From Streptomyces sp. NPDC059785 (lineage in GTDB: Bacteria > Actinomycetota > Actinomycetes > Streptomycetales > Streptomycetaceae), in assembly GCF_042732375.1 (NCBI RefSeq), contig NZ_JBHWHV010000010.1:170403-194402 (forward strand): DNA of 24,000 bases, given 5' to 3'. Position numbers and translations under genes: made by a program. Positions within the stretch are counted from its first letter, which is position 1. Every line of letters starts with the position of its first letter. Positions 677 through 19,205 of this stretch are shown here, in pieces. The notes beneath the pieces are model-generated. The model searched no databases and was not told the origin of the DNA. It was given only the letters and a program-made list of their open reading frames with translations.

Positions 677-3418
677 TCAGGGGCGGTCGTCGGCCAGTTC
701 CGCCACGCCTGTGACGCGGTGCAGGGGGTAGGTGCGGACCTCGTCGGCCGTGTGGTCGTACGCCGTGACGAAACCGCCCTCGACGCGGATCGGGGCGATC
801 ACGCGCTGGCTGGCGGCGCCCTCCGCGTTGACGTAGCCGATCCACAGGGCCTCGCCGGTGAGGACGGCGGCCTGCATGGTCGCCAGGGTGTCGGCGGAAC
901 TGGTGCGGGGCAGTGCGCCGTTCCCGGCCGGCGCCGCGTCCGCCTCGGGCGCGGGCTTGCGCGCCGCCGTGGACGCCAGGTCACCGGCCCGGACCGCCCG
1001 GATCGCGGCGCCGAGGAGTGTGGCGTCCGGCACCGGCGGGCCCTCGGGCACCGGCTCCGGCGCGCTGCGCGGCGGGGTGCGGTGGGCCAGCGCCCGGCTG
1101 ATCAGTACGTCGCCCTCCGCGGACTCGGCGGCGGGCGCGAAGCCCATCGCGCGCAGCCCTTCGAGCAGCGTCGCCGGGTCCGCCTGGGCGGCCAGCACGG
1201 TCGGGGCGAGTCTGCGCAGCCGCAGACCGGCCGAGCGCCGGTCGGCCAGGATCTCGTTGAGCAGCGCGTCGTCGTCGCAGCGCACGTACGCGGAGGCCGC
1301 GCCGATCCGCAGGTGCCCGTGGCGCCGCGCCACGTCGTCGATCAGATACGTCAGCGGCTGCGGGACCGGCGTGCGCGAGTGCGCGGCGAGGAAGGCGTGC
1401 AGGTCGGCCGCCGCCCGGCCCGCGTCGAGCGCCCGCCGCACCGACCCGGGCGTGAACCGGTACACCGTCGCGCCGCCCTTCGACTCCACGTCCGCGAGCA
1501 CGCCGAGCATGTCGGCCAGCGGCCGCCGCAGCGGCCCCGGCGCGACCGCCGTCAGGTCGGCCTGGAGCAGGACGTGGTCCAGCGGCTCGGGCAGCAGCGG
1601 GGCGAGGAGACCGGCGGCCCGGGCGGCGTTCGCGGCCAGTTCGGCGGGGGTGCCGGGGGCCGGGAAGGCGGGTGCCGCCGCGGGGACCGCTCCGGGTGCC
1701 GGCTCCGGGGGGCGGCTGCGGTGGGTGGGCGGCTCGTCGCCGGGGCCACGGCCGGTGGGCAGGCCGTGGCCGGGGGGACGGCCGTCGGGGCGCTCGCCGC
1801 CGGTGTGCTCATGGCCGGTGCCGGCGGGCTCGGGCCCCGGTACTGGTGACGGTGGCAGGCCGAGCAGGGCGCGGCCGTGGGTCGACAGTGCTCCGCGGCC
1901 GGTCACCCCCAGCAGCTCCGCCTCGGACAGCGTCCACCGGGCGAGCCGGGCGCGCAGGTCCTCCGGCTCGGGCGCGGTGCCCGCGGCGGGGGCGCGCGGC
2001 GGCTGGGCGGTGCCGCGCAGCGCCCGCTCCCAGCGCAGCCGGGCCAGTACGGAGTCGGGCCGCGCGGCGGCGCCCTCGGGGAGCGCGCCGAGCAGCGCGA
2101 GCACCCGGTGGCGCACCTCGGGCGCGGCCGACCGGTCCAGGCCGGGGCCCAGCGCCGAGAGCGTACGGTCCCGGGCGTCCCGGCCGCCGATCAGGCCCGC
2201 CGTGCGCGTCGCGGCCAGCCAGGCGACGGCCAGCCGCGACCAGCGCTCGGCGGCCGGCAGCTCCAGCCACTCGTCGTACGCGGGCGTCGCGGCGTACCGC
2301 TCGTCGGCCTCGCCGTCGGACGCCAGCAGGCCCGCCGCGTAGGCGAGTTCGACCCAGAAGGCGGCCACCTGCTCGGTCACGTCCAGGGCGACCGAGGTCC
2401 GCTTCAGGTCGCGCACGCTCAGCCCGCCCGCGCGCAGCACCGCGGGGCCGCCCTCGTCCCAGTCCTTGAGCAGTTCCTCCACGGTCGCGAGCGCCGTGTA
2501 CGCCTGGCCCGCCGCCGTCGCGTCCACCACCGTCGGGCGGTGCGCTGCGGCGGCCTCGACGGCGGGCGGCAGCGGCTCCGTCCCGCGGTGCGCGCGGCCC
2601 GCCCGCAGGTGCAGGGCGACCTCCCGGGGCAGTACGACGGTGCCGGGCGCGGTCGGCAGCAGCAGCCCGCGGTCGAGCAGCCAGCGCAGCCGGGGCGCCG
2701 GATCGGCGGTCACCTGGCCGTAGGGCGGGCCCCAGACCAGGCGGGACAGGACCTCCACGGAGTCGGCCGGGGCCTCGTCGAGCAGCGCGGACATCCGCTC
2801 CCGGTCGGTGAACAGTTCCGTCAGCGCCGCCACCGCCGACACCGCGTCGTGCGTCGACGGCAGCCCGGCCGTCGTCACGATCTCCTGGATCCGGCCGGGC
2901 GACATGCCCGGCGTGGCCTCCGCGACCGTCGGGCCGAGGCCGGTCGGGGACGGGTGCTGCGGGGACGGCGTGAGCAGTTCGCGGGCGGTGCGCACCAGCC
3001 GGACGCGGTCGTCGGGGCCCCAGACGAGGGCCTGTTCGCGCAGCGTGCCGAGGGCCCGGGGCAGCGCCCGCGCGACCACCTCGCCGCCCTCGTCGCCGTG
3101 GTCGTCGCCCGCCATCAGACCGAGGAGCTCGTCGTACGTCGCCGGGTCCCGCGCCACCGCCAGGGCCTCCGCCGTCTGGAGCGCGAAACGGTCGAGGCGT
3201 TCCAGGGCGCGCACCACGGAGGCCCGGGTACCGGCCCGGGTGGCGAGCTGCGTCAGATCCGTGGGGACGGGGGTGACGAGATCGGGGCGGGCCCGCAGCA
3301 GCGCGGCGAGGGAGGCGTCGTCCCGCGCGCGGAGGCTTTCCGCCAGGGAGCGCGGGGTCGTCCCGGCCCCGGCGTGCTCCTGTTCCGGCTGCGCCGGGTG
3401 CTGCTCCTCGGTGCTCAT
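677..3418 (-). CDS. helicase-associated domain protein (type encoded near XPB/ERCC3 in actinobacteria, Rv0862c-like), 913 aa, with a WYL-like C-terminal barrel
   Basis: This is the C-terminal 913 codons of the 1324-aa track ORF 677..4651. The internal ATG at 3418 (MSTEEQHPAQ...) is where GC3-rich coding starts; the upstream extension overlaps the opposite-strand gene 3593-4697. The N-terminus (LAALLRARPDLVTPVPTDLTQLATRAGTRASVVRALERLDRFALQ) and the C-terminal block (TPVPQPLTYLIDDVARRHGHLRIGAASAYVRCDD...LRAMGFAP) match my memory of XPB-associated helicase-accessory proteins. The tail ALWIGYVNAEGAASQRVIAPIRVEGGFVTAYDHTADEVRTYPLHRVTGV looks WYL-like. A Pro-rich disordered linker lies in the middle. 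Confidence 0.8.
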   Translation of the reverse strand: MSTEEQHPAQPEQEHAGAGTTPRSLAESLRARDDASLAALLRARPDLVTPVPTDLTQLATRAGTRASVVRALERLDRFALQTAEALAVARDPATYDELLGLMAGDDHGDEGGEVVARALPRALGTLREQALVWGPDDRVRLVRTARELLTPSPQHPSPTGLGPTVAEATPGMSPGRIQEIVTTAGLPSTHDAVSAVAALTELFTDRERMSALLDEAPADSVEVLSRLVWGPPYGQVTADPAPRLRWLLDRGLLLPTAPGTVVLPREVALHLRAGRAHRGTEPLPPAVEAAAAHRPTVVDATAAGQAYTALATVEELLKDWDEGGPAVLRAGGLSVRDLKRTSVALDVTEQVAAFWVELAYAAGLLASDGEADERYAATPAYDEWLELPAAERWSRLAVAWLAATRTAGLIGGRDARDRTLSALGPGLDRSAAPEVRHRVLALLGALPEGAAARPDSVLARLRWERALRGTAQPPRAPAAGTAPEPEDLRARLARWTLSEAELLGVTGRGALSTHGRALLGLPPSPVPGPEPAGTGHEHTGGERPDGRPPGHGLPTGRGPGDEPPTHRSRPPEPAPGAVPAAAPAFPAPGTPAELAANAARAAGLLAPLLPEPLDHVLLQADLTAVAPGPLRRPLADMLGVLADVESKGGATVYRFTPGSVRRALDAGRAAADLHAFLAAHSRTPVPQPLTYLIDDVARRHGHLRIGAASAYVRCDDDALLNEILADRRSAGLRLRRLAPTVLAAQADPATLLEGLRAMGFAPAAESAEGDVLISRALAHRTPPRSAPEPVPEGPPVPDATLLGAAIRAVRAGDLASTAARKPAPEADAAPAGNGALPRTSSADTLATMQAAVLTGEALWIGYVNAEGAASQRVIAPIRVEGGFVTAYDHTADEVRTYPLHRVTGVAELADDRP

Positions 3419-5748: not shown

Positions 5749-6000
5749 CTACGAGCCGGAGGCGCGGGCGCGGCGGCGGCCCGCCGCGAGCGACTGGAAC
5801 ACCCCCGCTCCGGCCATCAGGAACCCGACGCCCATCAGCATGCTCAGACCGAACATGAACGTCGGAAAAGGCTCCGTTCCGAGCAGTAGCGGGGCCACGG
5901 TGACCAGAGTGGCCACGGCTCCGACGAAGAACACAATCGCACCGGCACGGATCAGCCAGTCACCGGCTTCGGCGGAATTCGGTTGGGTTTTGTCACGCAC
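5749..6000 (-). CDS. small two-TM membrane protein (83 aa), function unknown
   Basis: Track ORF with a GTG start at 6000. It has two hydrophobic helices (WLIRAGAIVFFVGAVATLVTVAPLLL; FMFGLSMLMGVGFLMAGAGVF) and a basic tail. GC3 is only moderate and there is no clear RBS. Confidence 0.5.
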   Translation of the reverse strand: MRDKTQPNSAEAGDWLIRAGAIVFFVGAVATLVTVAPLLLGTEPFPTFMFGLSMLMGVGFLMAGAGVFQSLAAGRRRARASGS

Positions 6001-11935: not shown

Positions 11936-14900
11936 GTGAGCAAGTTCGTGCGGTCTGCGGCCGAGGGCGCGGACCCGTTCGGTACGGCGCGTCTGCGGCG
12001 CGGAGTGCTGGACGCCTGGGCCACCAGCCCGGCCCGGTTCCGCGAGGACGCCAACGCCGAGGAGGACCTCGTACTCGGCGGGTACCGGGACCGGCTCGTC
12101 GTCGAGCTCGCCCAGAACGCGGCCGACGCAGCGGCCCGCGCGGGAGTGCCGGGCCGGCTGCGCCTCACCCTGCGCGAGGGGGTGCTCGTCGCCGCCAACA
12201 CCGGCGCCCCGCTCGACGCCGCGGGTGTGGAGTCCCTGTCGACCCTGCGGGCCTCCGCCAAGCGGGACGCCGAGACCGGCGGGGGCACGGCCGTCGGCCG
12301 GTTCGGCGTCGGCTTCGCCGCCGTGCTCGCCGTGACCGAGGAGCCGGCCGTCGTCGGCCGGCACGGCGGGGTCCGCTGGTCGCTCGGCGAGGCCCGGCTG
12401 CTGGCGGCCGACACCGCCCGGCACAGCCCCGGCCTCGGGGACGAGGTCCGCCGCCGCGACGGCCATGTGCCGCTGCTGCGGCTGCCGTTCGCCGCCGAGG
12501 GCAGCGCCCCGGGACCGTACGACACGGCGGTCATCCTGCCGTTGCGGGACGTCGCCGCCGGGGAACTGGCGGAAAGGCTTCTGCGCCAGGTGGACGACGC
12601 GCTGCTGCTCGCGCTCCCCGGCCTCGAAGAGGTCGTCGTCGAGATCGGCGACGAGGGCGAGGGCGACACCGGAGTACGTACGCTGCGGCGTCGGGCCGAT
12701 GAGCACGGCGTCGTCATCGAGGACTCCCGCGACGGCGTCACCCGCTGGCGTACCGCCGCCGCGCACGGCTCCCTCGACGCCGGGCTGCTCGCCGACCGTC
12801 CGGTCGAGGAACGGCTGCGCCCGCACTGGTCGGTGACCTGGGCCGTGCCCGTCGACGCCGACGGCGCCCCGGCCCGCCCCCGTACCAGCCCCGTCGTGCA
12901 CGCGCCCACCCCCAGCGACGAGCCCCTCGGTGTGCCCGCGCTGCTCATCGCCTCCTTCCCGCTCGACACCACCCGGCGGCACGCCGCGCCGGGACCGCTG
13001 ACCGACTTCCTGGTGGAGCGGGCGGCCGACGCGTACGCCGGACTGCTCGCCGGCTGGCGCCCCGTGGGCCCCGGGATCATCGACCTGGTGCCCGGCCCGC
13101 TCGGCAAGGGCGCCCTGGACGGCGCCCTGCACGGCGCGATCCTCGCCCGGCTGCCCCGTACCGCCTTCCTGCCGCCCGCCGTACCGCCCGAGGGCCCGGA
13201 CGCGCCCGCCGACTGGGCGGCCGAGCCCGGTGACACCGCGCCGGTGACCGTGCCCGTCGCGCTGCGGCCCCGGGACGCCGAGGTGGTCGAGGGCGCCGGC
13301 GCCGAAACCGTCCGCGTTCTCGCCGAGGTGCTGCCCAGCCTGCTGCCCGCCGGGCTCGAACGCCGGGCGGAGCTGCGCACCCTCGGCGTGGCCCGGGTGC
13401 CGCTGACCGAGGCCGTGGACCGCCTGGCCGGTCTGGAGAAGGAGCCCGGCTGGTGGCGGCGGCTCTACGACAGCCTGGCGGGCGTCGACCCCGACCGGCT
13501 CTCCGGCCTGCCCGTACCGCTGGCCGGTGACGCCACGGAGGAGGACGGCCCGGGTTCCGGCGCGGTGCGCACCACCATCGGGCCCCGGCAGGTCCTGCTG
13601 CCGTTGCCCGACGGCCCCCGGATCGCCTCCGACGTCCTCGCCCGGCTCGGGCTCAAGATCGCCCACCCGGACGCCGCGCACCCGCTCCTCGAGAAGCTGG
13701 GCGCCCTGCCCGCCACGCCCCGCGCCGTCCTGACCACCCCGCAGGTCCGGGCCGCCGTGGCCGCCTCGCTGGACGACGACGGCGGCTGGGACAGCGCGGG
13801 CCCCGACGCCGAGGAGCTCGCCGAGGCCGTGCTCGCGCTGGTCCGTGACGCCGCCCTGGAGCCGGGCGACGAGCCCTGGCTCGGCGCGCTCGCCCTGACC
13901 GACGAGGACGGCGAACTGGCGCCCGCCGGTGAGCTGGTCCTGCCGGGCAGCCCGTTCGCCCAGGTCATGCGTGAGGGGGAACTCGCCGCGGTGGACGCCG
14001 AGCTGGCCGGGCGCTGGGGCGAGCAGCCGCTCGCCGCCTGCGGGGTGCTGGCCGGTTTCGCCCTCGTCCGCGCCGCCGACGTCGTCCTCGACCCGGACGA
14101 ACTGGAGCCCCGCGACACCGACTTCGCCGAACCGGACGACGCCGGGCTGCTCGACGCCGTCGACGTGTGGTGCGAGGACGTCCTCGACCGGCTGCCCGAC
14201 AGCCCGGTACCGCCCGTCGCCACCGAGATCGTCGCCGTCCGCGACCTGGACCTGGTGGACGACGACCACTGGCCGCGGGCGCTGGCCCTGCTGTCCAAGC
14301 CGCCGCTGCGCGACGCGCTGACCCAGCCGGTACGGATCCTGCTGCCGGACGGGACGCACGAGATCGTCCGCCCGTACACCGCCTGGTGGCTGCGCGGGCA
14401 CCCGGTGCTCGACGGGCGGCGGCCCGCCGGGCTGCGCGCCGCGGGCGGCGACCCGCTGCTGCGCGGCCTGTACGACGAGGCCGACGCCACCGGCTTCGAC
14501 GACGAACAGGTACTGCGGGCCCTGGGCGTACGCACCTCCGTGGCCGCCCTGCTCGACGAGCCCGGCGGCGCCGCGGAACTCCTCGACCGCCTTGCCGACC
14601 CCGGCCGCGAGGTGACCTCCGCCCAACTGCACGCGCTCTACGCGGCGCTGGCCGAGCTGGAGCCCGACAAGGTGACCCTGCCGGACGAGCTGCGGGCCGT
14701 GGTCGACGGGCAGGTGCGGGTGGTCGACGCGGCCGACGCCGTGGTGGTCGACTCGCCCGACCTGCTGCCCTTCACGGACGGGGTGCCGCTGCTGCCCGTA
14801 CCGCCGGCGCGGGCGGCCGATCTCGCCGAGCTGTTCCAGGTGCGGCGGCTGAGCGAGTCGGTGCCCGGCGAGGTGACCTCGCCCGGCACCGAGCACGAGG

Positions 14901-15157
14901 TCCCCGAGTCCGTACGGACCCTGCTGGGCCCGGCCGCGCCCGCCTCGTACGTCGAGCACGAGGAACTGGTCGTGGACGGCACCGAGCTGGACTGGCGCCG
15001 CACCCGGGACGGTGTCCTGCACGCCGCCACCCTGGAAGGCGTGGCCGCGGGTCTCGCCTGGGCGGCCGGGCAGTGGCCGCGCCGCTTCGAGGTGGCCGCG
15101 CTCCTGGAGGACCCCTCCCGCACGGCGGAGCTGGCGCGGGACCGCTGGTTCGACTGA
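11936..15157 (+). CDS. large GHKL-type ATPase, sacsin N-terminal-like (HATPase_c_3-like), 1073 aa, function unknown
   Basis: GTG at 11936 follows GAGGAGAG. The Bergerat-fold N-box is VVELAQNAADAA, followed by VAANTGAPLD and the glycine box GRFGVGFAAV. The remaining ~850 aa are acidic with no motif I recognise. Confidence 0.85.
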   Translation: MSKFVRSAAEGADPFGTARLRRGVLDAWATSPARFREDANAEEDLVLGGYRDRLVVELAQNAADAAARAGVPGRLRLTLREGVLVAANTGAPLDAAGVESLSTLRASAKRDAETGGGTAVGRFGVGFAAVLAVTEEPAVVGRHGGVRWSLGEARLLAADTARHSPGLGDEVRRRDGHVPLLRLPFAAEGSAPGPYDTAVILPLRDVAAGELAERLLRQVDDALLLALPGLEEVVVEIGDEGEGDTGVRTLRRRADEHGVVIEDSRDGVTRWRTAAAHGSLDAGLLADRPVEERLRPHWSVTWAVPVDADGAPARPRTSPVVHAPTPSDEPLGVPALLIASFPLDTTRRHAAPGPLTDFLVERAADAYAGLLAGWRPVGPGIIDLVPGPLGKGALDGALHGAILARLPRTAFLPPAVPPEGPDAPADWAAEPGDTAPVTVPVALRPRDAEVVEGAGAETVRVLAEVLPSLLPAGLERRAELRTLGVARVPLTEAVDRLAGLEKEPGWWRRLYDSLAGVDPDRLSGLPVPLAGDATEEDGPGSGAVRTTIGPRQVLLPLPDGPRIASDVLARLGLKIAHPDAAHPLLEKLGALPATPRAVLTTPQVRAAVAASLDDDGGWDSAGPDAEELAEAVLALVRDAALEPGDEPWLGALALTDEDGELAPAGELVLPGSPFAQVMREGELAAVDAELAGRWGEQPLAACGVLAGFALVRAADVVLDPDELEPRDTDFAEPDDAGLLDAVDVWCEDVLDRLPDSPVPPVATEIVAVRDLDLVDDDHWPRALALLSKPPLRDALTQPVRILLPDGTHEIVRPYTAWWLRGHPVLDGRRPAGLRAAGGDPLLRGLYDEADATGFDDEQVLRALGVRTSVAALLDEPGGAAELLDRLADPGREVTSAQLHALYAALAELEPDKVTLPDELRAVVDGQVRVVDAADAVVVDSPDLLPFTDGVPLLPVPPARAADLAELFQVRRLSESVPGEVTSPGTEHEVPESVRTLLGPAAPASYVEHEELVVDGTELDWRRTRDGVLHAATLEGVAAGLAWAAGQWPRRFEVAALLEDPSRTAELARDRWFD

Positions 15158-15229
15158 GGGCCAGTGGCGGCCAGACTTCGAGCCGGTCACTGTCGGGGGC
15201 GTGACCCCGTTCCCGGCAATGACCTTGAT

Positions 15230-16607
15230 CACTTGTTCGTGGACCGTGTGTAGTGTGAACTGGGGAACGGCTGTTCCTGGCGACAGCCGATGCTGTGTGT
15301 TCGTACGATCCTCGCATGCAGCTTCGGTATGCCTTCCGGTTGTATCCGGAGCCCGGTCAACGCACGGCGTTGGCCCGGGCGTTCGGGTGTGCGCGGGTGG
15401 TGTTCAACGACGCGGTACGAGCCCGTCGGGACGCCCACGCGGCCGGGCTGCCGTTCCCGAGCGCGGCCGAGCTGTCGAAATGGCTGATCACCCAGGCCCG
15501 GCACACGCCGGAGCGTTCCTGGCTGGCCGAGGTCTCCGCGGTGGTGCTGCAGCAGTCCCTGCGAGATGCGGAGGTCGCGTACCGAAACTTCTTTGCCTCG
15601 CTGAAGGGCGAGCGCAGAGGGCCGAAGGTGAGGGCGCCGCGGTTCAAGTCGCGCAGGGATGCCCGGCAGTCGATCCGGTTCACCGCGAACGCCCGCTGGA
15701 AGATCACCGGCAAGGGGCGGCTGGTCCTGCCGAAGATCGGCGCCGTGCGGGTGGCGTGGTCGCGGTCCCTGCCCGCCGTGCCGTCCAGCGTGACGGTGAT
15801 CCTGGACGCGGCGGGACGGTACTTCGCGTCCTTCGTCATCGACAGCGATCCCGCCACGGACCGGACTCGCTTCGATGCTCCCGACTCCGACCGGGTCGTC
15901 GGCATCGACCTGGGCCTCACTCACTTCGCGGTACTTTCCGACGGCACGAAGATCGACAGCCCGCGGTTTCTGCGCCGGGCGGAGAAGAAGCTGAAGAAGA
16001 CCCAGCGGGAGCTGTCCCGCAAGCGGAAGGGGTCGAAGAATCGGGCCAAGGCCCGGCTGAAGGTCGCCCGCGCCCATGCGGCCGTGGCCGATGCGCGCAA
16101 GGAGTTCCACCATCAGTTGTCCACGCAGTTGATCCGCGAGAACCAAGCGGTCGCGGTGGAGGACCTGGCGGTCTCCGTCCTCGCGCGCACCCGGCTGGCC
16201 AAGAGTGTCCACGACGCGGGCTGGGCCCAGTTCGTGGCCATGCTCCAGTACAAGGCGCAGCGCTACGGGCGGACCTTCGTCAAGATCGGCCGGTTCGAGC
16301 CCACCAGCCAGGTGTGCTCGGCCTGCGGGTACCGGGACGGACCCAAACCCCTGCACGTGCGGCAGTGGACCTGCCCCGCTTGCGGTGCCGTCCACGACCG
16401 CGACCACAACGCCGCGATCAACGTCAAACAGGCCGCCGGACTGGCGGCATCGGCCTGCGGAGCGCCGGTAGGGCCAGAACCCGTTCTGGCACAGCGCGAA
16501 GAAACAGGAAGTTACGGAATCCCACCCCGACCCGTGCCGCGTAGCGGGACAGGTCGGGGCAGGGATGGCCAGAATCCTCGGATTTCAGTCCAAGGAGCGA
16601 GTCAATC
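15230..16607 (+). mobile_element. IS200/IS605-IS1341-type element carrying only tnpB (no tnpA); ends tentative (about +/-30 bp)
   Basis: It fills the convergent spacer between stops at 15157 and 16665. A left-side hairpin CGGCTGT-N8-ACAGCCG lies at 15268-15289, and a TTGAT sits at 15225-15229 just outside the proposed left end. The right side has GAATCC, an imperfect hairpin (16576-16595) and AGCGAGTCAAT (to 16606), resembling right ends of TnpB elements as I remember them. Confidence 0.5.
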
Positions 16608-16647
16608 CAAGCTCACCGTGAACACAACACACACTTCATCGACGTGA
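15316..16647 (+). CDS. tnpB: TnpB (IS605 OrfB family RNA-guided endonuclease), 443 aa
   Basis: The start MQLRYAFRLYPEPGQ is a typical TnpB N-terminus; the track ORF begins 7 codons earlier. The RuvC motifs are VGIDLGL, AVAVEDLAV and HDRDHNAAINV. A zinc ribbon reads CSAC-x15-CPAC. The last ~13 codons probably read into flanking DNA. Confidence 0.9.
   Translation: MQLRYAFRLYPEPGQRTALARAFGCARVVFNDAVRARRDAHAAGLPFPSAAELSKWLITQARHTPERSWLAEVSAVVLQQSLRDAEVAYRNFFASLKGERRGPKVRAPRFKSRRDARQSIRFTANARWKITGKGRLVLPKIGAVRVAWSRSLPAVPSSVTVILDAAGRYFASFVIDSDPATDRTRFDAPDSDRVVGIDLGLTHFAVLSDGTKIDSPRFLRRAEKKLKKTQRELSRKRKGSKNRAKARLKVARAHAAVADARKEFHHQLSTQLIRENQAVAVEDLAVSVLARTRLAKSVHDAGWAQFVAMLQYKAQRYGRTFVKIGRFEPTSQVCSACGYRDGPKPLHVRQWTCPACGAVHDRDHNAAINVKQAAGLAASACGAPVGPEPVLAQREETGSYGIPPRPVPRSGTGRGRDGQNPRISVQGASQSKLTVNTTHTSST
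16440..16607 (+). ncRNA. candidate omega-RNA (reRNA) scaffold overlapping the tnpB 3' end; the 5' limit is a guess
   Basis: Inferred by position from known TnpB biology. The terminal imperfect hairpin is CCTCGGA-TTTCAG-TCCAAGG (16576-16595), followed by AGCGAGTCAAT. The guide-equivalent flank would then be 16608-16627 (caagctcaccgtgaacacaa). Confidence 0.35.
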
Positions 16648-16650
16648 AGT
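16633..16650 (-). terminator. hairpin ACTTCA-TCGACG-TGAAGT; on the minus strand it is followed by GUGUGUGUUGUGUU, so it is the likely terminator of the P-type ATPase gene
   Basis: Read directly. It lies 15 nt downstream of the ATPase stop on the minus strand. The stem is only 6 bp. Confidence 0.4.
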
Positions 16651-16664
16651 AGTAAGAGGCAGCC

Positions 16665-19205
16665 TCACGCGGGAAAGCGGCGGTCGACCCACTTCCACAG
16701 GAACTCAAGGGCGGCCGCCGCCACCGCCGCGATGCCCACCGCGGTCCACGGCATCACCGAGCCCACCAGGCGCAGCGCGAAGAAGTGCTGGAGCCACGGC
16801 ACGGCGAGCACCAGCAGGAACGCCACCCCCATCGCCGCGACCAGGCAGACCCGCCACCAGGTGTAGGGCCGGGCGATGATCGCCAGGACCCACATGGAGA
16901 TCAGGAACAGGGTCAGCGTCGCCGCGCTGGTCTCCGCGCCCAGCGCCCCCGACCCGGTGTAGTAGTGGCGGGCGATCAGGTACGTGACGAAGGTGGCCAC
17001 CGCGGCCAGTACGCCGCCCGGGATCGCGTACCGCATGACCCGTTTGACGAAGTGCGGCCGGGCCCGTTCCCTGTTCGGGGCGAGGGCCAGGAAGAACGCC
17101 GGGACGCCGATCGTCAGCGTCGACAGCAGGGTCAGATGGCGCGGCAGGAACGGGTACTCCACCTGCCAGCACACCACGAACACCGCGAGCAGCACCGAGT
17201 AGACCGTCTTCACCAGGAAGAGGGTCGCGACCCGGGTGATGTTGCCGATGACCCGGCGGCCCTCCGCGACCACCGAGGGCAGCGGCGCGAAGCTGTTGTC
17301 GAGCAGCACGATCTGCGCGACGGCCCGGGTCGCCTCGGACCCCGAGCCCATGCTGACCCCGATGTCGGCGTCCTTGAGGGCCAGTACGTCGTTGACGCCG
17401 TCGCCGGTCATCGCCACCGTGTGGCCGCGGGACTGGAGCGCGCCCACCATGTCGCGCTTCTGCTGCGGGGCGACCCGCCCGAAGACGGTGCCCTCCTCCA
17501 GCGCCTTGCCCATCTCCTCGGCCCGCTCGGGCAGTTCGCGGGCGTCGACCGGTGTGGCGGCGCCCGGCAGCCCCAGTTTCCCGGCGACCGCGCCCACCGA
17601 GACGGCGTTGTCCCCGGAGATCACCTTGGCCCGGACGTTCTGCTCGTCGAAGTAGCGCAGGGTGTCGGCGGCGTCCGGGCGCAGCCGCTGCTCCAGGACG
17701 ACCAGGGCGGTGGCCCGCACCCCTTCCTTGACGTCCGGGGCGTCCAGTTCCCTGGCGGCGCGGGCCAGCAGCAGTACCCGCAGCCCCTGCTCGTTGAGCC
17801 GCTCGGTCTCGCGCAGCGCCGCGTCCCCGGCGGGCAGCAGTACGTCGGGGGCGCCGAGCAGCCAGGTGCTGGACTCCCCGTCGCCCTCGCTGAAGGTGGC
17901 CCCGCTGTACTTGCGCGCGGAGGAAAAGGGCAGCGACTCCGTGCAGCGCCAGTCGTCACTGTCGGGGAAGGCGGCGACGATGGCCTGGAGGGAGGCGTTG
18001 GGGCGGGGGTCCGACTCACCGAGCGCGCCGAGGACCTTGCGTATGTAGCCCATCCGCGCGTCGTCACCGTCGCCGTCGTCATGGCCGTCGTCATGGCCGT
18101 CGCCGTCGTCATGGCCGTCGCCGTCCTCATGGCCGTCGCCGTCCTCATGGCCGCCGTCGTCGTCATGGCCGCCGTCGTCGCCCAGGGGCCGTACCTCCGT
18201 GACGTCCATGCCGCCCTCGGTGAGCGTGCCGGTCTTGTCCAGGCAGACGGTGTCGACGCGGGCCAGTCCCTCTATCGCGGGCAGCTCCTGCACCAGGACG
18301 TGCTTGCGGCCGAGCCGGATGACGCCGATCGCGAAGGCGACGGAGGTCAGCAGCACCAGCCCCTCCGGCACCATCGGCACGATGCCGCCGACCGTCCGCG
18401 CCACGGACTCCTTGAAGGCGTTGTCCTTGACCACGAGCTGGCTGATGACCAGGCCGATCGCGGTCGGGACCATCATCCACGTCACGTACTTGAGGATCGT
18501 GGAGATGCCGCTGCGCAGCTCGGAGTGGACGAGGGTGAAGCGGGAGGCTTCCTCGGCGAGCTGGGCCGCGTACGCCTCGCGGCCCACCTTGGTCGCGGTG
18601 AAGGCGCCGCCGCCCGCCACCACGAAGCTGCCCGACATGAGCTGCTCCCCGGGGCGCTTGACGACGGGGTCGGCCTCGCCGGTGAGCAGCGACTCGTCGA
18701 TCTCCAGGCCGTCGGCCTCGGCGACGGCGCCGTCCACGACGATCTTGTCGCCGGGCCCGATCTCGATCACGTCGCCGAGGACGATCTCGGAGGTGCGGAC
18801 GCCGACGGCCTTCCCGTCCCGGCGGACGGTCGGCTTCGACTCGCCGATCACGGCCAGCGAGTCCAGGGTCTTCTTGGCCCGCCACTCCTGGATGATCCCG
18901 ATGCCGGTGTTGGCGATGATCACGTAACCGAAGAGGCTGTCCTGGAAGGGCGCCACGAAGAGCATGATCACCCAGAGCACACCGATGATCGCGTTGAAGC
19001 GGGTGAAGACGTTGGCGCGGACGATCTCCATCAGCGAGCGGCTGCTGCGGACGGGAACGTCGTTCACCTTGCCCTGCGCGACCCGCTCGGCCACCTCGGC
19101 GGCGGTCAGTCCGCGGGCCCGTCCGGGCGGTGCTGAGGGGCGGGCGGGGTCGACGTCCGTGCCCGCGTCGGTGTGCGTCATGGATCCGACGGTACGTGCG
19201 CACAT
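16665..19205 (-). CDS. cation-translocating P-type ATPase (PEGL/P2-like, CtpE-like), 846 aa
   Basis: Motifs present are TGEADPV (actuator), PMVPEGL (TM4), CLDKTGTLT (phosphorylation site) and MTGDGVNDVLALKDADIG (hinge). ATG at 19205 sits 6 nt after AGGTGA; the alternative start is ATG 19181 (MTHTD). Confidence 0.9.
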   Translation of the reverse strand: MCARTVGSMTHTDAGTDVDPARPSAPPGRARGLTAAEVAERVAQGKVNDVPVRSSRSLMEIVRANVFTRFNAIIGVLWVIMLFVAPFQDSLFGYVIIANTGIGIIQEWRAKKTLDSLAVIGESKPTVRRDGKAVGVRTSEIVLGDVIEIGPGDKIVVDGAVAEADGLEIDESLLTGEADPVVKRPGEQLMSGSFVVAGGGAFTATKVGREAYAAQLAEEASRFTLVHSELRSGISTILKYVTWMMVPTAIGLVISQLVVKDNAFKESVARTVGGIVPMVPEGLVLLTSVAFAIGVIRLGRKHVLVQELPAIEGLARVDTVCLDKTGTLTEGGMDVTEVRPLGDDGGHDDDGGHEDGDGHEDGDGHDDGDGHDDGHDDGDGDDARMGYIRKVLGALGESDPRPNASLQAIVAAFPDSDDWRCTESLPFSSARKYSGATFSEGDGESSTWLLGAPDVLLPAGDAALRETERLNEQGLRVLLLARAARELDAPDVKEGVRATALVVLEQRLRPDAADTLRYFDEQNVRAKVISGDNAVSVGAVAGKLGLPGAATPVDARELPERAEEMGKALEEGTVFGRVAPQQKRDMVGALQSRGHTVAMTGDGVNDVLALKDADIGVSMGSGSEATRAVAQIVLLDNSFAPLPSVVAEGRRVIGNITRVATLFLVKTVYSVLLAVFVVCWQVEYPFLPRHLTLLSTLTIGVPAFFLALAPNRERARPHFVKRVMRYAIPGGVLAAVATFVTYLIARHYYTGSGALGAETSAATLTLFLISMWVLAIIARPYTWWRVCLVAAMGVAFLLVLAVPWLQHFFALRLVGSVMPWTAVGIAAVAAAALEFLWKWVDRRFPA
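18057..18180 (-). repeat. in-frame tandem repeat (units of about 18 nt, GAC/GAG-GAC-GGC-GAC-GGC-CAT) encoding a His/Asp/Gly tract inside the ATPase
   Basis: Read directly. The plus strand shows GTCATGGCCGTCGCCGTC-like units about six times. The translation is GDDGGHDDDGGHEDGDGHEDGDGHDDGDGHDDGHDDGDGDD, 13 residues after DKTGTLT. Confidence 0.9.

Follow-up and report, generated by a model that had tools for sequence, protein, structure and literature searches.

The window analysed here is a stretch of 24,000 nucleotides (nt) from Streptomyces sp. NPDC059785 (contig NZ_JBHWHV010000010.1, forward-strand positions 170,403 to 194,402), to which all coordinates refer. Between a gene for a sacsin-like protein and a gene for a P-type ATPase it holds an open reading frame (ORF) for TnpB, the RNA-guided nuclease of IS200/IS605-family elements, preceded by part of a left end (LE) and overlapping a complete right end (RE) (Table 1). 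The segment 15255-16605 is very probably an immobilised, LE-truncated copy of a very common Streptomyces element of this family with IS608-like ends, which was inserted into a gene directly after the pentanucleotide GCTAC.

By every sequence criterion tested, the ORF encodes a genuine TnpB. The product has the helix-turn-helix, RuvC and zinc-ribbon TNB architecture of these nucleases, with matches above all cutoffs to HTH_OrfB_IS605 (PF12323), OrfB_IS605 (PF01385) and Cas12f1-like_TNB (PF07282) in Pfam, and it scored 333 bits against a cutoff of 100 with the NCBIfam model guided_TnpB. A phmmer search against the PDB aligned residues 5-379 with ISDra2 TnpB of Deinococcus radiodurans (8exa, 8bf8, 8h1j; E=1.5e-71). 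In the alignment to 8exa/8bf8, D198, E282 and D363 stand opposite D191, E278 and D361, the catalytic residues of ISDra2 TnpB (PMC13639567), and the RuvC triad is therefore intact. An earlier note, made from the sequence alone, had read the ORF as a TnpB with an intact catalytic core from the motifs MQLRYAFRLYP, VGIDLGL, AVAVEDLAV and HDRDHNAAINV and from a zinc ribbon of the form CSAC-x15-CPAC; all of these were found where it had placed them, and Pfam, NCBIfam and the ISDra2 alignment agree with its reading. When the protein was aligned with 74 family proteins, it departed from only three of 229 near-invariant columns (at least 95% conserved; family median 2, maximum 8), which argues that the TnpB core is not decaying.

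A single scan of species-representative genomes recovered at least 525 loci encoding relatives of this TnpB, all in Streptomyces and close allies. The analyses below use the best 80 of these loci (L001-L080), whose proteins are 73-87% identical to that of the window. An adjoining, divergently oriented tnpA encoding a Y1 transposase of 138 residues (transpos_IS200 by NCBIfam, 149 bits) accompanies tnpB in 32 of the 80. The nearest relatives (L007, L001, L002, L074, L003, L012 and L027) consist of tnpB alone, flanked by complete left and right ends. The window lacks the Y1 TnpA in cis that a complete IS200/IS605 element would have: tblastn with the family TnpA gave no real match at E<=10 over the 24 kb, and Pfam shows the other genes to be core, in line with what the earlier note had reported.

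The RE was delimited by the point at which homology among copies ends. In a blastn comparison of the window with the 80 loci, matches ended at 16604-16612 in about 70, and the copies ended in GGCCAGAAT-CCTCGGGCTTCAGCCCGAGG-AGCA(A/T)GTCAA; beyond this the sequence is unrelated, and already variable at position 16606. A profile made from the last 187 alignment columns, with the window left out, hit 16430-16605 (E=9.5e-45) and found no second copy in the window. The subterminal hairpin, with TCAA 10 nt 3' of it, is that of an IS200/IS605 right end. The earlier note had read GAATCC (16572-16577), this same hairpin and AGCGAGTCAAT (16596-16606), all of which are present, and had placed an omega-RNA-type RE within 1-2 nt of its actual position; because homology within the family ends at 16605, the guide begins at 16606 and not at 16608. 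A second match to the guide, on the minus strand within tnpB (15791-15806), was set aside, having three mismatches, no adjoining GCTAC and no significance. In L003, L075 and L018 the loop of the right-end hairpin carries a 5-nt duplication (CTTCA).

The RE overlaps the 3' end of tnpB and has the properties of a structured RNA. Its invariant blocks start at GGCCGCCGGACTGGCGG (16429-16445) and their conservation far exceeds that of synonymous sites in the coding sequence that they overlap. Using RNAalifold and a count of pairs, we found 96.4% of the cells of the predicted helices to be paired, versus 31-44% in controls in which the partners were slid by one to three columns, and 112 cells changed on both sides, versus 6-38 in the same controls; none of 500 shuffles reached the observed covariation value. 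An internal helix (window 16474-16489), which is not a TnpA site, covaries with 28 GC-to-AU swaps. Covariation is seen in the terminal hairpin too, where each of two pairs has changed on both sides in 23 sequences, but this hairpin doubles as the TnpA-binding DNA hairpin, so its covariation alone is no proof of an RNA role. A structured scaffold drawn from the 3' end of tnpB and the RE thus ends at the transposon boundary and is followed by a flank-derived guide, as expected of a TnpB system. The omega-RNA-type RE that the earlier note had placed here is supported by a covarying, omega-RNA-like scaffold over 16429-16605 and by its conservation to 16605 in about 70 of the 80 loci. The window copy still forms all predicted hairpins, and for its last 178 nt the minimum free energy, at -83.1 kcal/mol (rank 14 of 79), is more favourable than the median of the family.

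An Rfam search at E<=10 over 14800-17200 returned no omega-RNA family, only a weak antisense match to Sernc389 and a chance match to flavi_FSE. The former lies inside tnpB on the minus strand (15921-16111; 17.9 bits versus a gathering threshold of 74, E=0.09). Sernc389 is the Saccharopolyspora small RNA 389, of antisense type; this family probably lies antisense to a homologue of tnpB, a hint at antisense transcription of tnpB-type genes in actinomycetes.

Only the inner part of the LE is left. In solo copies of the family the LE is ~170-220 nt long. A profile of 203 positions, built from 23 solo copies, matched the window only at its positions 132-203 (window 15255-15325, E=1e-08, nhmmer); with all filters off, a search of the 24 kb gave no other match, and profile positions 1-131 were not found. 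From outside to inside, an intact solo LE reads flank-GCTAC, CGGGATTCATTCGCAGTGC, a hairpin CCGGCCTTCAGGCCGG like that of the RE, GGTGAAGCGAATC, two small hairpins and the part shared with the window. The outer ~131 nt, with ATTCATTCGCAGTGC, the hairpin and the GCTAC-adjacent cleavage site, are gone from the window copy, and all the nearest copies retain a full LE. The window element therefore has no subterminal LE hairpin and no cleavage site beside a target motif, both of which a complete IS200/IS605 element carries, and because the TnpA-binding hairpin and the cleavage site are missing it can be neither excised nor mobilised, even in trans. The earlier note had taken it for a complete solo IS1341-type element; with the LE truncated, its own left flank has no LE or transposon-associated motif (TAM) to read. 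The hairpin CGGCTGT-N8-ACAGCCG that the note had pointed out at 15268-15289 exists, but it is specific to the window, and what the family conserves is GGGAAC-N4-GTTCC at 15263-15278, held by the seven nearest copies as GGGAAC-GGGT-GTTCCC.

The region directly upstream of tnpB is retained. The pattern TANNNT ends 6-7 nt before the tnpB start in 75 of 76 family copies (background 0.1% per position), and the window copy has such a hexamer, which suggests that the tnpB mRNA may be leaderless and that its promoter survived the LE truncation. A scan for E. coli-type sigma-70 promoters found nothing, as expected for Streptomyces. In L009, at about 5880-5950, a (GGTGAC)n expansion lies inside the LE.

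The C-terminal end of the ORF is altered. In 69 of the 74 copies that could be evaluated tnpB ends before the RE, with the stop almost always within codons 406-419 (codon 407 or 409 in most, at a TAG in a hairpin loop; L077, with an earlier stop at codon 392, is an exception), and the family proteins end in ...REETGSHGxPxRxxAA*. In the window a 1-nt deletion in a C-run puts the TAG at 16542-16544 out of frame, so the ORF enters the flank, running 39 nt past the RE to the TGA at 16645; frame +2 retains the ending ...NPTPTRAA*. The read-through into flanking DNA described in the earlier note is thus real, but it is due to a frameshift that bypasses the in-element stop and is not a family feature. 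We rejected it as a family trait, given the 69 of 74 copies that stop before the RE. The TAG is also lost by frame changes in L001, L005 and L080, read-through being exceptional (5 of 74); the ORFs of L001 and L005 run on into flanking DNA, that of L005 forming a 487-residue fusion ORF. The view that the element does not look decayed, which the note had also expressed, is contradicted by the loss of LE positions ~1-131, by the deletion at 16523/16524 and by deviations at six of 106 near-invariant omega-RNA columns.

The aligned left flanks of the family give GCTAC, rather than TTGAT, as its target motif. The five bases preceding the LE in 55 copies are G in 55, C in 51, T in 55, A in 53 and C in 53, and from position -6 outward the sequence is variable; CTAC lies ~18-20 nt 5' of the LE hairpin. 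A TTGAT does stand at 15225-15229, as the earlier note observed in likening it to the ISDra2 target, but it lies in unrelated flank 26 nt from the start of homology and is a coincidence, since GCTAC is what precedes the family LE and lies in the empty site. Among the right flanks that follow GTCAA in L001-L080, G or C occupies position +3 in 69 of 78 and position +6 in 72 of 78, a pattern suggesting that the majority of family copies lie within ORFs, right after the TAC (Tyr) codon of GCTAC.

The element does not lie in a plain spacer between two convergent core genes, as had been thought, for relatives have a third gene there. This gene, flanked by the sacsin-like and P-type ATPase genes, encodes a secreted protein of 283-309 residues with a weak match to DUF5707, and the homology of the window to these relatives stops exactly at both flanking stop codons. 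The first 14 nt of the right flank of the window element (TCCAAGCTCACCGT) occur exactly and colinearly inside this gene in L082, L083 and L084. They are preceded by GCTAC in L083 and L084 (CAGCGCTAC joined to TCCAAGCTCACCGTCAAC) and by GCTTC in L082, and 17 of 18 nt at the insertion point are identical to L083. In a metagenome contig (L085), found with the joined pattern, this gene is likewise intact and reads GCTAC joined to TCCAAGCTCACCGTCAAC. The empty site GCTAC joined to TCCAAGCTCACCGT thus exists in L083, L084 and L085, consistent with insertion 3' of a specific target without duplication. A second piece of the gene was recognised at 16633-16652, where local alignment to the 3' end of the gene matched 17 of 19-20 nt, ~6 standard deviations above shuffles. 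Relatives show GCTAC joined to TCCAAGCTCACC, which refutes the left half of the empty site predicted in the earlier note (TTGAT joined to CAAGCTCACC) and puts its right half out by 2 nt. In the same species we would predict the uninterrupted joint to read GCTAC joined to TCCAAGCTCACCGTGAAC, without duplication. Where the note had spoken of an uncharacterised TAM and omega-RNA, explicit predictions can now be given, namely GCTAC and the 16429-16605 scaffold. When the joined left and right flanks of 59 copies were searched against the loci, no match spanned a junction. Upstream of the intact DUF5707-like gene, at about 1075-1086 (minus-strand reading), L085 carries a 12-mer AGCGAGTCAATC identical to window 16596-16607; L082 and L083 have GGAGTCAACAG there, and the identity was judged a coincidence with a native promoter-region motif.

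Table 1. Features of the element and its flanks (window coordinates).
Feature	Position	Strand	Remarks
Left flank, outside the element	15158-15254		No match to LE profile or relatives' DNA; holds the coincidental TTGAT (15225-15229)
Retained inner left end, tnpB 5' region	15255-15315	+	LE profile positions 132-203 only
Family-conserved small hairpin	15263-15278	+	GGGAAC-GGCT-GTTCCT, upstream of tnpB
-10-like hexamer	15304-15309	+	TACGAT; ends 6 nt before the ATG
tnpB ORF	15316-16647	+	443 codons plus stop; core (residues 1-~402) intact, C-terminal tail frameshifted; TGA stop 16645-16647
Right end, candidate omega-RNA scaffold	16429-16605	+	177 nt, overlaps tnpB 3' end; RE profile, covariation
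1-nt deletion in C-run	16523/16524	+	Column 162 of alignment A1; frameshift from codon ~403
TAG, usual tnpB stop of the family	16542-16544	+	In loop of hairpin GTGCCGC-GTA-GCGGCAC; out of frame in window copy
IS608-like right-end core	16572-16605	+	GAAT 16572-16575; hairpin CCTCGGA-TTTCAG-TCCAAGG 16576-16595; 10-nt AGCGAGTCAA 16596-16605
Cleavage tetranucleotide TCAA	16602-16605	+	End of AGCGAGTCAA
Guide-equivalent sequence	16606-16621	+	TCCAAGCTCACCGTGA; 16 nt, extendable to 16625; directly 3' of family boundary
Remnant of disrupted secreted-protein gene (weak DUF5707 match)	16606-16652	+	Two pieces, ~270 nt between them deleted
Remnant piece 1	16606-16623	+	Codons SKLTVN, about codon 207 of 310 in L083
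Remnant piece 2	16633-16652	+	Last 20 nt of the gene, with stop

The features of the element can be compared with those of characterised systems. As in ISDra2 of D. radiodurans, the protein has the same domain order, a DED triad and a CxxC...CxxC zinc ribbon, and the guide RNA (the reRNA of ISDra2) would come from the tnpB 3' end and the RE with a guide taken from the flank. In contrast to ISDra2, the target is GCTAC in the window family and not TTGAT, the RNA of the family has no Rfam match, the family tnpA is divergent where present, and the window copy lacks a left end and has a frameshifted C-terminal tail. The ends resemble those of IS608 of Helicobacter pylori (IS200/IS605, Y1 TnpA), which has TTAC 19 nt 5' of its left hairpin, outside the element, and TCAA 10 nt 3' of the foot of its RE hairpin (PMC3201880). 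In the present family too the target tetranucleotide, here CTAC, lies outside the element, the foot of the RE hairpin is followed at exactly 10 nt by TCAA, and the LE and RE hairpins resemble each other. The window element also has GAAT 5' of its RE hairpin, GAAT being the guide sequence of IS608. Unlike IS608, the family has a target of 5 nt with an invariant G and a high-GC Streptomyces host, and the window copy has neither LE nor TnpA. The tnpB-only IS1341-type elements are matched by the seven nearest relatives with their full ends, but the window copy is incomplete and so cannot be mobilised in trans.

We propose, by analogy with characterised IS200/IS605 elements where the RNA is concerned, the following history. 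The element would have entered by single-strand 'peel-and-paste' directly 3' of GCTAC, at about codon 207 of the secreted-protein gene. Later deletions would have taken away the 5' two-thirds of the gene along with the adjoining outer part of the LE (~131 nt), and also about 270 nt from the 3' part of the gene. What remains is a putative promoter or leaderless start region of tnpB, a TnpB with an intact helix-turn-helix, RuvC and zinc-ribbon core and DED triad but with frameshifted last codons, and a complete RE. The tnpB transcript could then be processed into an omega-RNA made of the 16429-16605 scaffold and about 16 nt of flank. A TnpB-omega-RNA ribonucleoprotein (RNP) would be predicted to cut DNA in which TCCAAGCTCACCGTGA stands directly after GCTAC, as in the uninterrupted allele of the destroyed gene, now absent from this genome, and would spare its own copy, where GTCAA and not GCTAC precedes the guide-matching DNA. 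TnpB reportedly cuts the TAM-flanked donor joint and so favours retention of the transposon. Such cutting would serve the 'homing/retention' that is the normal role of TnpB, but because the left end is gone the nuclease would have no remaining role in its own transposition.

Several observations weigh against this interpretation. The empty site was deduced from a metagenome contig and from relatives that share only ~83% identity in the ATPase. GCTAC would act as the TAM by extension from its place as the transposon target. The left flank (15158-15254), compared with the intergenic and promoter DNA of relatives, gave Smith-Waterman scores in the shuffle range; a by-eye match there (GATCAC...CGTGGACC) was dropped. 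The 41-residue C-terminal tail of the protein is altered. The window copy deviates at six of 106 near-invariant omega-RNA columns (16471, 16473, 16512, 16513, 16548 and 16599; family median 1, maximum 6), its terminal hairpin has one C·A mismatch and its scaffold a 1-nt deletion, and such wear may impair the TnpB-omega-RNA RNP. The altered tail lies past the stretch alignable with the structured core of ISDra2 TnpB; in the ternary structure of the ISDra2 protein, resolution of the C-terminal region is poor (PMC13639567).

The same insertion occurs in one other strain, the near-identical Streptomyces sp. NPDC059786 (L081), with three of 1621 nt differing around the element. Within 15100-16720 the differences are at 16512, 16513 and 16585 only, all in the omega-RNA scaffold, the first two being a CC>TT change at family-invariant positions on the side of the window strain; the 4 kb upstream show none. 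Constraint on the RNA may have been relaxed once the element was immobilised, but the differences are too few for a test of this.

That an RNP is still made and active appears to be close to an even call, because the intact core, the start region and the RNA helices have to be weighed against the frameshifted tail and the omega-RNA substitutions. The alternative that survives best is a dead relic, whose ORF and RNA would look intact only because immobilisation was recent, and which would form no active RNP and be drifting to loss. We regard this as a substantial possibility, held tentatively. It would account for the lost left end, the C-terminal frameshift, a load of changes at invariant omega-RNA positions that is the highest in the family, and the location of all three L081 differences, the CC>TT at invariant positions among them, in the omega-RNA region; with the target allele gone from the genome, no selection for activity would be expected. 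Against it, the protein core has no excess of change (3 of 229 columns versus a median of 2), the catalytic triad and the zinc ribbon are intact, the -10-like element is kept, all predicted RNA helices form with a free energy better than the family median, and the frameshift touches only what lies beyond the part aligned with the structured ISDra2 core.

Much less probable, indeed very unlikely, is a TnpB domesticated for a host function and kept by selection, either as an RNA-guided regulator of the kind of TldR (TnpB-like nuclease-dead repressors) or for the exclusion of DNA carrying the intact allele. The copy does resemble TldRs and domesticated TnpBs in being immobile, without tnpA and with a fixed guide, while its nuclease core and RNA scaffold are intact; both strains available from the lineage carry it as a fixed insertion, and the intact allele of related species has, next to GCTAC, a match to its guide. 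However, the catalytic residues that TldRs have lost are all present, the guide is mere insertion flank as in any copy of an IS605-family element, no conserved link to a regulated host gene exists, the conservation of the omega-RNA is relaxed rather than strengthened, and sharing by only two near-identical genomes leaves long-term retention unsupported. The model of the earlier note, a complete and potentially mobile solo-TnpB element of IS1341 type at ~15230-16607 with a TTGAT target or TAM and an LE hairpin at 15268-15289 in a plain spacer, can be dismissed as hardly credible: its TTGAT and hairpin exist, its right end is essentially where predicted and the nearest relatives are tnpB-only elements, but LE positions 1-~131 are absent, GCTAC precedes the family LE and stands in the relatives' empty site, the hairpin is not conserved and relatives carry a gene at the site.

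The other genes of the window are chromosomal: helicase/WYL, HAD, cold-shock, menaquinone synthesis, MFS, the sacsin-like ATPase, the P-type ATPase, DUF2530, permease and MarR. The sacsin-like gene (11936-15157, plus strand; 1073 residues) has no Pfam match, and an NCBIfam model for a sacsin N-terminal ATP-binding-like domain gave 75.8 bits; its position beside a DUF3027 gene is conserved among relatives. Most differences between the window strain and L081 are concentrated in the P-type ATPase gene (16665-19205), in a His/Asp/Gly-rich repetitive insert (GGHDDDGGHEDGDGHEDGDGHDDGDGHDDGHDDGDGDD) of the cytoplasmic domain (18030-18152, minus strand) that is polymorphic in length, the ATPase having 846 residues in the window strain versus 821 in L081. 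An exact-sequence look-up found no record for the window TnpB, with either possible start, or for the window P-type ATPase.

The truncated copy at 15255-16605 belongs to an ordinary, already understood type of element: an IS200/IS605 copy stranded after it had inactivated a gene, and not a new system. Its annotation is corrected in that the element is neither intact nor mobile, does not target TTGAT and does not lie in a simple spacer, and the loss of a secreted-protein gene (weak DUF5707 match) mediated by an insertion sequence is documented in this lineage. For a very large family of Streptomyces TnpBs, the ends, a candidate target and TAM (GCTAC), the normal stop, a leaderless-type start and a covarying scaffold are now defined. 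The present Streptomyces TnpB toolkit uses ISDra2 with TTGAT (PMC12415229), and the family predictions could help those seeking native TnpB editors compatible with high-GC genomes. More speculatively, an active immobilised pair of protein and RNA might behave as a heritable device for allele exclusion or drive, because its fixed guide matches, next to GCTAC, the intact allele of the gene that it destroyed; we consider this improbable. If true, DNA with the intact allele that entered from related Streptomyces through conjugation or recombination would be cut, to the advantage of the disrupted locus. Separately, the family of more than 500 members would be a source of TnpBs with a GC-richer TAM, GCTAC, for high-GC genomes.

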